Part shown: positions 1 through 7,633 of the stretch, piece by piece
Layout of the letters: each line of letters begins with the position of its first letter
Position numbering within the stretch: position 1 is the stretch's first letter
Source of the DNA: a virus
Lineage: Duplodnaviria; Heunggongvirae; Uroviricota; Caudoviricetes
Strand: one strand, 5' to 3'
IMG/VR virus record: IMGVR_UViG_2703718791_000016
DNA: 7,633 bases
The notes under the pieces: generated by a model
Databases searched by the model: none
What the model was told of the DNA's origin: nothing
What the model saw: only the letters and a program-made list of their open reading frames with translations
Position numbers and translations under genes: made by a program

Positions 1-1218
1 CGATGATGCCCCCGCGTTTAGCGCCACTCCTCCCGCATGGCGCAAAATCGCCGTTGCCAGACGGTCGGAAATAATCCCGCGGCGTGCCCAGGCGCTGAAA
101 TGGCTCGCCCTGTCCTGTGACGTCCAGGTGGCTGAGCTGTCACGCCATTTCGAACCGTAATATCCGATACCCGGAATGTCCGGGTCTTCTTCCGGTTTGT
201 TCGTCGGCACATTCACCCCGTTCTCATCCGTCATGAACGGTACGAAATGGATATTCTTTTCCGTTTTGTTTTTGTAGCTGCCGTACACCGTCTGGTACGA
301 GGATTCGTTCTTCTGCTTCCAGAAATACGTCGTGTCCCCGCATATCCAGGGAACACCGTCAGCAGATCCACCGACGCACTGACCTGCCATATCCGCCAGG
401 TCTGCACGGAATTTATCAACCAGCGCACCAAACTGTGCTGCGTGATTTGCCGGCGTACCGCCAAAATCAAATTCCCCCTGCATCCACACCACGGCAAGCA
501 GCACATTTTTCGGGTTCTTCTTCAGTGCTGCTTTTGTTCGACCGATAAGGTCCTTATACAGCGGCTTGTCCACACCCCAGCGGGTTGAATTCTCCGAAGC
601 ACCACTCGCGTCACTGTATGTGCCATCAGCTCCGGTGGTGAACGCTGAACCACCACGACAGCACGGAACCAGCAGAATGCCCGCATTCGCCGGTATAAAC
701 GGCAGCAGTTTTTTGGCGATATGCAGCCCCTGCCCCACGGTTCCGTACTGCCCCTTTGACAGGTCCGCTTTCGGATGGTTAAGGCGGCTCATGTCCTGCA
801 CATCATGCAGACAATGGTCCGCCGGAATGATGTCGTTATATTTGCATGCTGCACCGCCCGGTGTCACCGTACTGCGGCGCGCCAGCTGCTTAATACGCGG
901 GTCCGGACGGTCATATGTCTCCGGCAGCGGAAGGCCTTCACCATATGCCATGCTGTTTGACTGCCCCGCCAGAACCACAACAAAGTAATACTCCGGGTCT
1001 CTGGTGGCGCTGATTACTGTGCCTTCTCCATCCGACGGCTTCACCAACACAGGTGTGGTGACATCACCTTCCGCCGCAATGGCCTGCATCAGAGTATAAG
1101 GCGTGATGGCCACCGGGCTGCCAAATGGCTGCCACCCCTCCTTCAGTTTTTGTGTCAGCTTTTCCGCAAGATCTGACGGCGACGCCGCCCTGACCACATC
1201 GTAGTGTTTAAATACCAT
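1..1218 (-). CDS. nanS: Prophage NanS-p-type sialate (9-O-acetyl-Neu5Ac) esterase, YjhS/SGNH family; N-terminal ~406 codons, 3' end beyond window start
   Basis: Minus-strand frame is open from ATG at 1216-1218 (alternative in-frame ATG at 1234-1236) to position 1 with no stop. It is absent from the ORF track only because the window edge truncates it. Translation starts MVFKHYDVVRAASPSDLAEKLTQKLKEGWQPFGSPVAI and contains the SGNH-hydrolase block I motif VVVLAGQSNSMAYGEG. Identity as the stx-adjacent NanS-p family is from memory of that family, not a search. Confidence 0.8.
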   Translation of the reverse strand, partial: MVFKHYDVVRAASPSDLAEKLTQKLKEGWQPFGSPVAITPYTLMQAIAAEGDVTTPVLVKPSDGEGTVISATRDPEYYFVVVLAGQSNSMAYGEGLPLPETYDRPDPRIKQLARRSTVTPGGAACKYNDIIPADHCLHDVQDMSRLNHPKADLSKGQYGTVGQGLHIAKKLLPFIPANAGILLVPCCRGGSAFTTGADGTYSDASGASENSTRWGVDKPLYKDLIGRTKAALKKNPKNVLLAVVWMQGEFDFGGTPANHAAQFGALVDKFRADLADMAGQCVGGSADGVPWICGDTTYFWKQKNESSYQTVYGSYKNKTEKNIHFVPFMTDENGVNVPTNKPEEDPDIPGIGYYGSKWRDSSATWTSQDRASHFSAWARRGIISDRLATAILRHAGGVALNAGASS

Positions 1219-2441
1219 GACCTTTTCCACCATATAAAGGAACAATAAATTCTTTTCTGATAGAGATTTAAATAAAAATACATTATTTTACAAAAAAAAT
1301 AATATCCATTACAAAAACATCCGATTTTTTTATATTCCCGCTCATCCTGCTAATTTGTATTACAAAAAAATGAAACAACTTGAACCAAAGTGATACAAAA
1401 TTAGAAAAGAAAACCCCAGGAAGACAAAGAAGACGATCTTTTTCAATGAGTTACACTGATTTATTGACTATGATTTTTAGCAAAACAATCGAAAGCAATG
1501 TGTACCGAGAAGGTTAAAAGATGGAATGGATAGTTATTGACACAGTGATATGCCCATCAAGCGGAATAACGTTTTCAACTGTATGGTGTAAAATAAAGTT
1601 GATAATCTGGTATCAGTCAGATGTGTTCCTGCCACCCGGAAGTATTCTCACACCTGTTAACTCAGGTGTGATTATGGATAATAAGCTGCTTCCATTAACC
1701 ATTTACAACGTGACACCATTTAACAGAAAATTCTGGTTCCTTATCAGAAATCAAAAAGAGTGCCCCGGGAATTCAGTTAAAACAAAAATAAAATGCCATA
1801 ATAGTATGTGTGTACTGATGATATGCCCGTATGGATTATATAAGTAACAACATATGAATACATAACAGATAAACTATTGACCTTGAGGCTCATCCATATA
1901 AAGAAGAGCTCTCCGAAGAGGTGTGTATTTGCATGCACATTCCTTTTTTGCTCTATGTCATGACCTCCGGCGACTCTATCCCGGCACCAGCAAACCCGCA
2001 TCATTCTCGTTTCCGGTGTCTCTAAAACCACAGCACACCTGCCCCCCCGCTGAGGGAGGGAAGCACTGTATCCGTACACTCAGCAACAGAAATACCACCT
2101 GCTCACTGCGCTACATATCAGCAACAATTTTATACCCGAACATTATCATTCAACAGCATGGTTCACAACAACATCATAACCCAGGAAACGAGAATCAGAT
2201 CAAAAAAACAGAAATTTTACATGAAAAATACTTTTTATTAATATTGATAGCGTCGTACCACAAAATACGATGAATTATCCCTGAACTTAACATTAATGCC
2301 AGTATGTATTGCCCGCTGGTATCAGCGGGCGCTTTAAGAGATCGTATTCATGACTACCTGGGAAAAAGCTATTTTACTATTGTCAGTTTTTATTGCAGCC
2401 TTATCTGTCTACTTGCTTCACAGCCTGAACTGACCATATCT
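1219..2441. other. AT-rich, ORF-poor intergenic segment at the canonical late-region cargo (stx/moron) position between the methylase and nanS-p
   Basis: No minus-strand ORF of plausible composition lies between the methylase stop (2442) and the nanS start (1218). The sequence is markedly AT-rich (e.g. 1240-1420, 2150-2300) with repeated TACAAAAA-like motifs (~1288, 1309, 1360, 1393). The only ORFs are short or low-complexity. Confidence 0.6.
2350..2433 (+). CDS. Candidate small hydrophobic peptide (27 aa, MTTWEKAILLLSVFIAALSVYLLHSLN), convergent with and ending 8 nt before the methylase stop
   Basis: ATG at 2350 preceded by TAAGAG (2335-2340) at SD-like spacing. The 17-residue hydrophobic core would fit a single transmembrane helix. 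A GC-rich hairpin gcccgctg-gtat-cagcgggc (2311-2330) sits in the putative leader. Too short for composition statistics, so this is a candidate only. Confidence 0.2.
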   Translation: MTTWEKAILLLSVFIAALSVYLLHSLN

Positions 2442-3518
2442 TTATTCATCCTTCCCGTCATCAATTGAGCATGTAAGGATGTGACTAATCTCCTTAACGG
2501 TCTGCGCAAAACGTTCTGCCTCCAGTTCAACACCAGTTGCACGACGCCCGAGCGCCATAGCTGCTTTTATGGTTGAGCCAGAACCCATGAAAAAATCCGC
2601 CACCAGGTCACCCGGACGACTGCTCGCGCAGATTATCTGCCGCAGCATTTCTGCCGGTTTTTCGCACGGATGTTTCCCTGGATAGTACTGCACCGGTTTA
2701 TGCGTCCACACATCGGTGTACGGCACCTGCACCGTCACACCGAAATACCGCCGCAAATTTTTATATTCACTCAGCAGTTCCATGTACTGTCGGTTCAGCT
2801 CACTGTATGTGCTGACCAGTTGGTAATGGGACTTTTCCAGTTCTCCCCGCTGATGTTTCTCTTCTGCCACCCGGGCAAACAGCGACTGTAATTTCAGATA
2901 ATCGCTTTCGTTCGGTAGCTGCCACTGACTGGCACTGAACCAGTGCGACACCATGTTTTTCTTTCCTGTGGCATCTGCAATCTGTTTTGCTGTTATCCCA
3001 AGAGCAGCACGCGCATCACGAAAGTAAGAAATCAGCGGGGCCATCACATGCTGTTTCAGTGCCCTGCCCTTCGCCTCATCGCCATCATCTTTCGGACGAT
3101 ACGGCCCCTGATAATGTTCCGCGAACAGAATGCGTTCTGTGGCCGGAAAATACGCCCGCAGGCTTTCCTTGTTGCACCCGTTCCAGCGTCCGGACGGCTT
3201 CGCCCAGATAATATGGTTCAGCACATTGAAGCGTTCACGCATCATGATTTCAATGTCAGATGCCAGGCGATGGTCACAGAACAGGTAAAGACTTCCGGCA
3301 GGTTTCAGCACCCGCCAGAACTGCGCCAGACACTGGTCCAGCCACTTCAGGTAATCATCGTCGCCCTTCCACTGGTTATCCCAGCCCTCGGGCTTCACTT
3401 TAAAGTATGGCGGGTCTGTGACTATCAGATCGACAGAGTTTTCCGGTAAGGTCTGGATAAATTCCAGGCAATCAGCGTTGATTAACTCACAACTGGATAT
3501 TTTTACAGTATTAAGCAT
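2442..3518 (-). CDS. Beta-class N6-adenine DNA methyltransferase (N6_N4_Mtase type), apparently orphan
   Basis: 358-aa ORF with DLIVTDPPYF (catalytic motif IV) near the N-terminus and DFFMGSGSTIKAAMALGR (AdoMet-binding motif I, FxGxG) near the C-terminus; this motif order defines the beta class, and DPPY favours N6-adenine over N4-cytosine. No restriction endonuclease candidate is adjacent. Confidence 0.9.
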   Translation of the reverse strand: MLNTVKISSCELINADCLEFIQTLPENSVDLIVTDPPYFKVKPEGWDNQWKGDDDYLKWLDQCLAQFWRVLKPAGSLYLFCDHRLASDIEIMMRERFNVLNHIIWAKPSGRWNGCNKESLRAYFPATERILFAEHYQGPYRPKDDGDEAKGRALKQHVMAPLISYFRDARAALGITAKQIADATGKKNMVSHWFSASQWQLPNESDYLKLQSLFARVAEEKHQRGELEKSHYQLVSTYSELNRQYMELLSEYKNLRRYFGVTVQVPYTDVWTHKPVQYYPGKHPCEKPAEMLRQIICASSRPGDLVADFFMGSGSTIKAAMALGRRATGVELEAERFAQTVKEISHILTCSIDDGKDE

Positions 3519-3656: not shown

Positions 3657-3682
3657 ATAAAAAAGCCTTCACTGCGGAAGGC
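3657..3682 (-). terminator. Intrinsic terminator (minus strand) overlapping the stop codon of the 65-aa ORF
   Basis: On the minus strand: stem GCCTTC / loop CGCAGT / stem GAAGGC followed by TTTTTTATTTG. Confidence 0.5.
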
Positions 3683-3866
3683 GTCTGTAACAACCGAACT
3701 GATAGTCTGCCAGACCCGCCATAACAAGCTGGGTCAGTATTAACTGGCAGCGTTCGCGTGAAAGGTAAGTATTCTGCGCAATCTCCCCGACTGTCGCCGG
3801 GTCGGTAACGCTTAATTCATTAAACACCACTCTGGCGGTTTCTGTCATATCCTGCTGTTTTAGCAT
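3669..3866 (-). CDS. Small (65 aa) putative winged-helix / HTH DNA-binding protein
   Basis: ATG preceded by AAAGGGAAAAAAGAC (purine-rich SD-like). The segment TVGEIAQNTYLSRERCQLILTQLVMAGLA has a helix-turn-helix-like pattern. It lies between two intrinsic terminators, downstream of Q and upstream of the methylase. Confidence 0.4.
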   Translation of the reverse strand: MLKQQDMTETARVVFNELSVTDPATVGEIAQNTYLSRERCQLILTQLVMAGLADYQFGCYRRLPQ

Positions 3867-4012: not shown

Positions 4013-4089
4013 CTTTCAAATGTCCATGTCTGCTATTCGCCTCGCGGTACAGCTTTGCGAAGCTTACCGGAATTGAAGCAGTTTTTACG

Positions 4090-6820: not shown

Positions 6821-6888
6821 AAGTGCGGGTGCGTTGAGGATGCCTGCCACATCAGAGGTGGCGAGGGATTTCTCCCTCGCCGGGTCTC

Positions 6889-7167: not shown

Positions 7168-7284
7168 ATCTGCCTTTGGTGTTCATGCCTGAGACAGATA
7201 GCCTCAAGCACCCGCAGCCATTCTACTTAACTCCCGTTACCCCGCCAATATGAAATCAGTCAGAAAGGCGATCCATAAGAATAA

Positions 7285-7326: not shown

Positions 7327-7633
7327 TCAGGCTGCCAGATCATTATTTCCGATGGAAGCATAATAAGCTTTTTCTGCTTCTGCCGGAGGAATATGGCCCA
7401 GCCTTTCCAGCAATCGTCGATTGTTATACCAGTCCACCCACGTTCGTGTGGCCAGTTCCACTTCTGTCCGGTTTTTCCAGCTATTACGGTGTATTACCTC
7501 CGCTTTGTAAAGACCATTGATGCTCTCAGCCATCGCGTTGTCATACGAGTCGCCAGTACTCCCTGTTGATGCCAGTAATCCGGCTTCCTTAAGCCGCTGC
7601 GCGTAGGCCAGCGATACATACTGAGAACCTTTA
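7327..7633 (-). CDS. IS3-family transposase OrfB (rve/DDE integrase core), C-terminal ~101 codons; 5' part beyond window end
   Basis: Minus-strand frame is open from the window edge: KGSQYVSLAYAQRLKEAGLLASTGSTGDSYDNAMAESINGLYKAEVIHRNSWKNR...LGHIPPAEAEKAYYASIGNNDLAA, stop at 7327-7329. The DSYDNAxAES region carries the conserved third acidic residue of the DDE triad. The ORF track shows only the 68-aa Met-initiated tail. Confidence 0.85.
   Translation of the reverse strand, partial: KGSQYVSLAYAQRLKEAGLLASTGSTGDSYDNAMAESINGLYKAEVIHRNSWKNRTEVELATRTWVDWYNNRRLLERLGHIPPAEAEKAYYASIGNNDLAA

Follow-up and report, generated by a model that had tools for sequence, protein, structure and literature searches.

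What occupies the late-region slot of a lambdoid prophage in which neither tRNA genes nor a Shiga toxin (stx) operon is found? The question is raised by positions 1219–2441 (1223 bp) of a stretch of 7,633 nucleotides from the virus record IMGVR_UViG_2703718791_000016, referred to below as the window. This interval lies between a DNA methyltransferase (methylase) gene and a nanS-p-type esterase gene, and all the recognisable genes around it are on the minus strand and together make up the section of a lambdoid prophage that extends from Q to the lysis genes. A previous sequence-only reading described the interval as AT-rich DNA with no tRNA, no stx and no convincing gene. The first parts of this description are correct. 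Pfam places the methylase stop at 2442 and the esterase start at 1218, both on the minus strand, and the GC content of the interval is 0.28 (1219–1520), 0.36 (1521–1847), 0.46 (1848–2185) and 0.36 (2186–2441), compared with 0.51–0.56 in the flanking genes. ARAGORN finds no tRNA in it, and blastn-short and tblastx find no similarity to stx2AB beyond chance. The sequence features listed in that reading are also all present, but the statement that there is no clear open reading frame (ORF) fails, as the ORF at 1521–1847 on the plus strand belongs to the IraM family. In all likelihood, the slot holds an intact anti-adaptor gene of the IraM/IraL/RssC family, carried as a lysogenic-conversion gene (moron) opposite to the late operon, with a function that we infer from IraM and IraL.

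The ORF encodes a protein of 108 amino acids (by homology an anti-adaptor of RssB) and is oriented against the phage late operon. A Shine-Dalgarno-like GAGAAGG precedes it at 1507–1513 (plus strand), 7 nt before the ATG; this element was read from the sequence and is invariant among the window, the O121 strain and STEC299. The protein reaches 144.2 bits against NCBIfam NF007393 (IraM; cutoff 121), with residues 1–107 aligned to profile positions 1–110 of 114, and phmmer matches it to PDB 8TWD, the crystallised IraM(1-78), with an E-value of 2e-29. In a megablast search of 5,426 complete Escherichia coli genomes the interval was recovered full-length at at least 99% identity in 28 chromosomes (O111:H8, O121:H19, O103, O39:NM and E110019 among them), and in all 28 the Prokaryotic Genome Annotation Pipeline (PGAP) annotates the ORF as "iraM: anti-adapter protein IraM" (WP_001443281.1). 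The same search against phage genomes gave no match, and the iraM allele of the window is known only from prophages in chromosomes. On the strength of the annotation, the family score, the structure match, the RssB-contact residues and the ratio of nonsynonymous to synonymous substitutions (dN/dS), the ORF is a real, selected protein-coding gene of the known IraM/IraL/RssC anti-adaptor family. It is thus an annotated gene that the sequence-only reading had not recognised, an outcome which that reading had itself named as refuting it. Public databases already list the gene by name, and what lacks characterisation is only the branch to which it belongs. The hmmscan search of the protein against the current Pfam-A gave no match at E≤0.01, so the identity was settled by the NCBIfam and PDB searches. 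The PmrD family PF11183 is found in the precomputed annotations of all 26 homologs, which disagrees with the Pfam scan of the ORF.

The AlphaFold2 model of the protein, built on 19 homologs, shows a predicted local distance difference test score (pLDDT) of 73–91 over residues 1–79. It consists of seven strands (residues 3–11, 16–23, 25–32, 42–46, 49–52, 55–58 and 60–66) and a helix (69–77), and has the antiparallel beta-barrel, the beta-hairpin and the single C-terminal helix that define a PmrD-like fold. The top Foldseek match of the model is 8TWD_A (E 3e-8, TM score 0.92, root-mean-square deviation 1.1 Å). The next PDB matches are the PmrD entries 4HN7, 2JSO and 2RQX (TM scores 0.70–0.74, normalised to the target), which fits the PmrD-like fold that has been reported for IraM (PMC10844676). 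PmrD, the connector protein that protects phospho-PmrA, has the same small beta-barrel; it differs from the window protein in its sequence (~20% identity), in its partner, which is PmrA and not RssB, and in the absence of the four-cysteine tail described below.

The residues that contact RssB form three clusters in the IraM-RssB crystal structure (PMC10844676), and 9 of these 14 IraM residues are identical in the window protein. Cluster I is fully retained (I4, I6, W22, K26 and I42). In cluster II, F18 and W30 are identical and the differences are T13S, C14S and L75I, while in cluster III I61 and Y62 are identical and H63N and I64V differ. The residues N63, V64 and I75 of the window protein recur in the IraL-type protein, whose anti-adaptor function is proven. 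The pairwise dN/dS values among the five available copies of the gene range from 0.07 to 0.19; in the comparisons of the window gene with STEC299, its closest relative (81% identical), phage 1717 and the IraL-type copy they are 0.17, 0.10 and 0.14, respectively. The protein is therefore under long-term purifying selection.

The C-terminal tail of the protein (residues 81–108, window positions 1761–1847) has pLDDT values below 50 in the AlphaFold2 model. In the IraM family this tail carries the pattern C81-P-x9-C92-x4-C97-x4-C102-P-Y-G, which is invariant in 19 sequences down to 44% identity. The tail is missing from the IraM crystal, for which a 1-78 truncation was used, and it was called flexible and less conserved (PMC10844676). 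The spacing of the cysteines points to a zinc knuckle or to redox sensitivity of the site.

In the relatives compared, the family member always occupies the same slot, on the strand opposite to the late genes and pointing away from the esterase. This holds for STEC299, the Stx2c phage 1717, the Stx2a phage Stx2_EH2201, AVS0756, the O121 strain and 2014C-3599. The gene order is methylase, tRNA-Thr/Arg/Gly, iraM and esterase in STEC299; a Q-type gene, a small ORF, the iraM-like gene and the esterase in AVS0756; Q, stx2cAB, the iraM-like ORF and nanS-p in phage 1717; and Q, a 198-bp ORF, methylase, tRNA-Met/Arg/Arg, stx2AB, iraM (antisense) and yjhS/nanS-p in Stx2_EH2201. The backbone order Q, small ORF, methylase, ..., iraM, nanS-p, DUF1378, DUF826 and holin is common to Stx2_EH2201 and the 100% identical chromosome. 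The methylase of the window is 84–93% identical to those of Stx2a, Stx2c, Stx2d and Stx2e phages up to about 2491–2500, and the homology to Stx phages stops ~50 bp inside its 3' end. These comparisons support a view of the window as a stx-free and tRNA-free relative of the Stx2 phage backbone, as one of the earlier suggestions had it.

The family is widespread. Homologs turned up by tblastn in 46 phage records, which with few exceptions are from Stx2-converting phages (mostly Stx2a and Stx2c); many of these records lack an annotation at this place. By blastn at least one member is found in 4,727 of the 5,426 E. coli genomes, in up to four places per genome. Within the family, the window protein belongs to a third branch beside IraM and IraL, together with 77–82% identical relatives in E. 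coli. By its position between Q/PR' and the lysis genes, its deviating GC content (0.28–0.36 against 0.51–0.56) and its variable presence the gene is a moron. The earlier proposal of a decayed moron was thus right in kind but not in state, as the gene is intact, with the low dN/dS against its nearest relative. Around the identical allele the decay differs from carrier to carrier (L013, 5750–6906; L001, 7064–9000; L004, 1057–3015), and the iraM ORF is intact in all of them. In 2014C-3599 an IS600 element is inserted just downstream of iraM, and in the O121:H19 strain the nanS-p-type esterase has an internal stop.

In E. coli AVS0756 (L006, 3741–4336) the slot of an ordinary lambdoid prophage, flanked by the Q-side genes on one side and the SASA/nanS-p esterase on the other, holds a copy of the IraL type. 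Its 5' untranslated region (UTR) matches 30 of 32 nt of the iraL mRNA mapped by RACE (rapid amplification of cDNA ends), and its protein is 59.5% identical to K-12 IraM, close to the published IraL-IraM identity of 58.9% (PMC4045071). This copy is IraL itself, and IraL, which has been described as located on the "potB genomic island" of CFT073, is therefore late-region prophage cargo; the slot considered here is thus also the home of the characterised IraL.

The gene of the window is nevertheless neither of the two characterised anti-adaptor genes in the strict sense. IraM (YcgW/ElbA) of E. coli K-12, the Mg2+-starvation anti-adaptor, matches the same family model and has the same PmrD-like fold and the same length as the window protein, with no gaps over residues 1–88; cluster I, F18, W30, I61, Y62 and the invariant Cys4 ... 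CPYG tail are common to both. The K-12 locus, however, is next to e14 and ycgX, whereas the window gene is in a lambdoid late region. An assignment to IraM sensu stricto (the K-12 orthologue) was rejected on the different locus, the identity of 54.6%, the lack of upstream similarity and the occurrence of PhoP boxes at chance level. IraL of uropathogenic E. coli CFT073 and Shigella, the log-phase anti-adaptor (PMC4045071), is likewise a homolog, and its copy in AVS0756 has exactly the same slot, orientation and aligned position of the -10 hexamer as the window gene. It differs in a C-terminal KQQSP extension, absent from the window protein, and IraL has been reported to bind only RssB's N-terminal domain. 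The iraL promoter and 5' UTR are at least 96% conserved among iraL carriers (PMC4045071); against the RACE-defined 5' UTR the window reaches a best local score of 8/32, compared with 28/32 for the AVS0756 copy. IraL sensu stricto (CFT073 type) was rejected as well, as the iraL promoter and 5' UTR are missing in the window and only the position of the -10 hexamer is common.

The iraM-like ORF of the Stx2c/Stx2a phages (1717, 2851 and Stx2_EH2201, among others) is found at the same place, immediately upstream of nanS-p/yjhS and divergent from it, and antisense to the late operon, and in some of these phages the same methylase is located upstream. Its protein is 62% identical to that of the window, and the similarity of the DNA is limited to 216 bp of coding sequence (72%). 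In these phages stx2AB and tRNA genes lie between the methylase or Q and the iraM-like gene; in the window they are missing.

The AT-rich divergent intergenic region 1219–1520 (72% A+T, with several A/T tracts) is the upstream regulatory region of iraM (plus strand). The four repeats reported in it are present as TACAAAA at 1289, 1310, 1361 and 1394. For this exact heptamer 0.18 copies are expected and four copies were reached in 0 of 5000 shuffles, but some 7-mer occurs at least four times in 17% of the shuffles of the AT-rich block. The repeats were therefore rejected as a specific element, not being significant once any 7-mer is allowed (P 0.17). The sole copy inside the part conserved with STEC299 is that at 1394, which reads CACAAAA in STEC299. 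This conserved part (1373–1520) is 78% identical between the two and includes the block AACGATCTTTTTCAATGAGTTA at 1432–1453 and the Shine-Dalgarno region. No sequence common to 1219–1520 and the upstream regions of K-12 iraM and iraL was found.

A sigma-70 promoter of iraM is predicted at 1446–1474 (plus strand), with TATGAT at 1469–1474 as the -10 hexamer and a weak and uncertain -35 element, either ATGAGT at 1446–1451 (17-nt spacer) or GTTACA at 1450–1455 (13-nt spacer). In a four-way alignment TATGAT occupies the same columns as TATACT of the IraL type, TATAAT of phage 1717 and TATACT of STEC299. The IraL-type hexamer is placed 7 nt upstream of the RACE-mapped start of the iraL mRNA (PMC4045071), and because of this alignment the window promoter is assigned by position, with a probable start near 1480 and a 5' UTR of ~40 nt. 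The earlier proposal of an H-NS-silenced regulatory region is plausible for the AT-rich 1219–1520; the counts of the high-affinity H-NS motif TCGATAAATT are at chance level.

Two further repeats of the sequence-only reading are real and lie within the coding sequence of iraM, so neither is an independent signal. The inverted repeat (plus strand) is slightly longer than was stated, with 9-nt arms at 1648–1656 and 1663–1671 within codons 43–50. It has a folding energy of -15.5 kcal/mol (z -4.1) and encodes L-T-P-V-N-S-G-V. Among the homologs, STEC299 has an imperfect form of it, and K-12, phage 1717 and the IraL-type copy have none. As it is within the coding sequence and not conserved in homologs, it was rejected as an operator or RNA structure and is most likely a by-product of the coding sequence. 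The 10-mer direct repeat TGATATGCCC is found at 1546 (not 1544) and 1819 and encodes (V/M)-I-C-P twice, near the N-terminus and in the invariant C-terminal I-C-P-Y-G. It was also rejected as a separate signal, both copies being by-products of the coding sequence that specify the I-C-P motif.

In respect to the function, IraM (K-12) and IraL (CFT073) both bind RssB and stabilise sigma-S (PMC4045071, PMC10844676). By analogy, the window protein would bind the adaptor RssB and block the delivery of sigma-S (RpoS) to ClpXP, and the level of sigma-S and the general stress resistance would be raised in the lysogen. Lying opposite to the late operon, the gene has to have a promoter of its own, from which the protein can be produced in the lysogen at a time when late transcription stops at tR'. 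Transcription in the lysogen would start from the weak sigma-70 promoter described above, independently of the Q-dependent late transcription. During induction the Q-modified polymerase would transcribe head-on through the gene; that this silences it is speculative. For Stx phages, an increase of RpoS by the PR'-tR' leader RNA StxS, which activates rpoS translation, is already known (PMC7547250), and an anti-adaptor encoded by the phage would act on the same target by another path. The late region may in this way carry two handles on the host stress response, a StxS-type leader RNA and an anti-adaptor. The supposedly empty cargo slot is not empty and needs no new explanation, which makes the finding a largely ordinary one: stabilisers of RpoS of the IraM/IraL type are a recurrent antisense passenger of the stx/nanS-p locus in lambdoid prophages. 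Our literature searches found no paper on the phage-borne copies. Specialists would not be surprised by the finding.

The remaining part of the interval (1848–2441, 594 bp) is non-coding and consists of the 3' flank of iraM, a filler of 166 bp and a conserved leader. The ORFs 1380–1517, 1923–2273 and 2304–2468 on the plus strand and 1777–2079 on the minus strand have no Pfam or NCBIfam match, and PGAP annotates nothing over 1848–2441 in 26 of the 27 genomes with a near-identical full-length copy. ORF 2304–2468 was rejected as a gene, as 1-nt indels disrupt it in three of the five relatives. The 3' flank (1848–1921) is conserved with STEC299. It is followed at 1922–1949 (plus strand) by a candidate weak intrinsic terminator of iraM, with a 7-bp stem (1922–1928/1933–1939), a UUGC loop and a T6 run (1944–1949). 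The terminator scan passed over this hairpin because its stem is GC-poor, and the fold of the whole 1848–1960 is not unusual (z -1.3); that it terminates iraM is proposed with low confidence. In STEC299 a clean minus-strand terminator (GCCCCTCTCCGGAGGGGCTTTCTTTT) abuts the 3' end of iraM, and its counterpart is decayed in the window. The STEC299 region (L002, 5429–6470, minus strand) also contains two copies of a ~40-nt element, GCATGGTGAATCCCCCTGTGCGG(C/A)GGGGCATAATGAC, around the tRNA-Thr/Arg/Gly array, the first of which runs into a tRNA-like 3' end (GGTTCAATCCCGGCAGGGGCCACCA).

The filler (1922–2087) is a lineage-specific non-coding segment found only in ~29 genomes with the same module at at least 99%, at the place where relatives have a tRNA array and Stx phages have tRNAs and stx2AB. 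It is followed by the non-coding leader 3' of the methylase (2088–2441, minus strand). The part 2186–2441 is 81–85% identical to STEC299 (L002) and to the stx-less relatives L009–L012, and the part 2088–2140 shows a weaker but significant match (score 19, shuffle maximum 17). In the relatives this leader runs, ~90–250 bp further, into 1–3 tRNA genes (among Thr, Arg, Gly and Ile). The GC-rich hairpin of the sequence-only reading, GCCCGCTG-gtat-CAGCGGGC at 2311–2330, is real, with 8 bp and a folding energy of -17 to -18 kcal/mol. Around it a core of ~65 nt (2285–2350) is invariant in six prophages, whereas its flanks differ by 15–20%; strain SHP24 also keeps it, although the 3' end of its methylase is of unrelated sequence, and in relatives it is located between the methylase and the tRNA genes. 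The core has no Rfam match, no ORF and no match in the phage database. Read on the plus strand, GCTTT(T)AAG comes after the hairpin; read on the minus strand, the hairpin has no U-run. Possible roles are a weak terminator for transcripts in the iraM direction, an RNA processing site and a protein-binding palindrome.

Several observations weigh against an active anti-adaptor in the window. The cluster II contacts T13 and C14 are both replaced by Ser, and the protein is only 54.6% identical to K-12 IraM and 60.4% to the IraL type. The gene is present in four relatives (L002, L003, L006 and L007), absent in two (L010 and L011) and a pseudogene in two more (L009 and L012), and is therefore dispensable for the phage. 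In OkiPb01713, a 100% identical record, the esterase is frameshifted, so the prophage may be decaying. The predicted -35 element is poor and the region very AT-rich, and the gene may be silenced under most conditions. The PhoP box, searched as KGTTTA-N5-KGTTTA, occurs at chance level (21 matches at ≤3 mismatches, 19.5 expected, none with fewer than 3), and the induction through PhoP/PhoQ known for K-12 iraM is thus not transferable to the window gene. These points could be taken to mean that the gene is an intact but silent passenger, for example H-NS-silenced, which adds nothing to the lysogen and is conserved only through recent acquisition of the prophage. The GC content of 0.28 upstream, the weak -35, the loss of the gene in several relatives and the broken esterase in some carriers (frameshifted or with an internal stop) fit such a passenger, and the 28 carriers, being at least 99% identical, are uninformative on selection. 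The comparison with STEC299, however, and the family-wide dN/dS show long-term purifying selection, the RssB-contact residues and the four C-terminal cysteines are invariant, and conservation extends to the -10 hexamer and the Shine-Dalgarno sequence. The IraL homolog that occupies this prophage slot is both expressed and active (PMC4045071). We consider a silent passenger quite unlikely. A reading that goes further than the anti-adaptor moron is an unlikely one too, namely that the window gene represents a third, functionally distinct branch of anti-adaptors, responding to a signal other than PhoP or log phase and working as an antisense switch. In such a switch, the protein made in the lysogen would raise sigma-S alongside a StxS-type PR'-tR' leader RNA, and after induction the head-on, Q-antiterminated transcription would shut the gene off, with the release of RssB and a lower sigma-S level in lytic growth. 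The Cys4 tail could then serve as a zinc or redox sensor tuning the switch.

The interval could also be mainly non-coding in function (a small RNA, an antisense-RNA locus or a cis-element of the late operon), with the ORF only incidental. The invariant ~65 nt around 2311–2330 would agree with this, and the hairpins 1648–1671 and 2311–2330 are both more stable than shuffled controls; moreover, antisense RNA would be an unavoidable product of iraM and the late operon being transcribed towards each other. The conserved core, however, makes up only ~5% of the interval, the hairpin 1648–1671 is not conserved in homologs, and 1922–2087 has no homolog outside one lineage. The covariance models of Rfam 15, a scan that the sequence-only reading had proposed, give nothing within 1219–2441 at E≤1, which leaves its idea of a small RNA locus unsupported. 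Together with the strong protein-level signals in the ORF, this makes a primarily non-coding role very improbable. Of a different kind is the proposal, compatible with the anti-adaptor moron and dealing with the spacer only, that 1848–2441 is a deletion scar from which the tRNA array, and possibly stx, was lost in descent from a toxin-type ancestor. It draws on the leader 2088–2441 that in relatives precedes the tRNA genes, on the tRNAs and stx2AB that Stx2 phages with the same methylase have here, and on the length of the unrelated sequence, which is 166 bp in the window against 914 bp in STEC299. The sequence-only reading had proposed to locate excision scars by alignment with the stx-flanking regions of 933W-like phages, but such a scar cannot be demonstrated: the junctions have no direct repeats or insertion sequence ends, and no gene fragments were recovered. 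ARAGORN detects no tRNA remnant in 1848–2441, comparison by blastn-short and tblastx with the tRNA/stx segments of L002, L003, L007 and L008 yields only chance-level 9–12-mers with no stx fragment, and local alignment to the three STEC299 tRNAs gives a single 12-nt identity. In addition, the homology to Stx phages ends inside the methylase and not at a tRNA/stx border, and loss here cannot be told from gain in the relatives with these data. We hold the deletion scar as a tentative explanation of the spacer, somewhat doubtful as it stands.

The genes around the interval complete the picture of the late region. Downstream of it in the direction of late transcription is the 5' part of the nanS-p-type esterase gene (1–1218, minus strand; Pfam DUF1737, E 8e-16, and SASA, E 3e-12), a late-operon gene divergent from iraM that is annotated in relatives as a DUF6645/SASA esterase. 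On the other side is the methylase gene (2442–3518, minus strand; N6_N4_Mtase, Pfam E 6e-43), convergent with iraM, and then a 65-residue ORF (198 bp; 3669–3866, minus strand) between tR' and the methylase. The same 198-bp ORF is found before the methylase in Stx2a and Stx2e phages. The 65-residue ORF has a sub-threshold match to a TrmB-type helix-turn-helix (17.3 bits, cutoff 25.6) and is called "TrmB family transcriptional regulator" in some records; a hairpin resembling an intrinsic terminator, with a T6 run, is located at 3682–3665 (minus strand) and overlaps its stop codon. Beyond the ORF lies the DUF1133/Q-type antiterminator gene (4656–4090, minus strand).

Downstream of the Q-type gene, at 4089–3980 (minus strand), a structured leader runs into a strong intrinsic terminator, GCCCGCUUUUUGCGGGUUUUUUU (-37.6 kcal/mol, z -3.6). 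It resembles the short PR'-tR' transcript that corresponds to lambda 6S RNA and to StxS. Within it, at 4063–3990, a weak isrK-like Rfam match is observed (E 0.72). The far end of the window carries a fragment of an IS3-family transposase gene (7327–7633, minus strand) and a complete hok/sok type I toxin-antitoxin module (7213–6889, minus strand), with an Rfam sok match of 118 bits at 7213–7039, outside the interval, and a Hok-like ORF (MKQQKAMLIALIVICLTVIV...). In gene order, rem, a DUF968 gene and rusA, all on the minus strand, come after hok/sok and before the Q-type gene. A second weak isrK-like hairpin-plus-terminator is observed at 6880–6799 (E 0.021).

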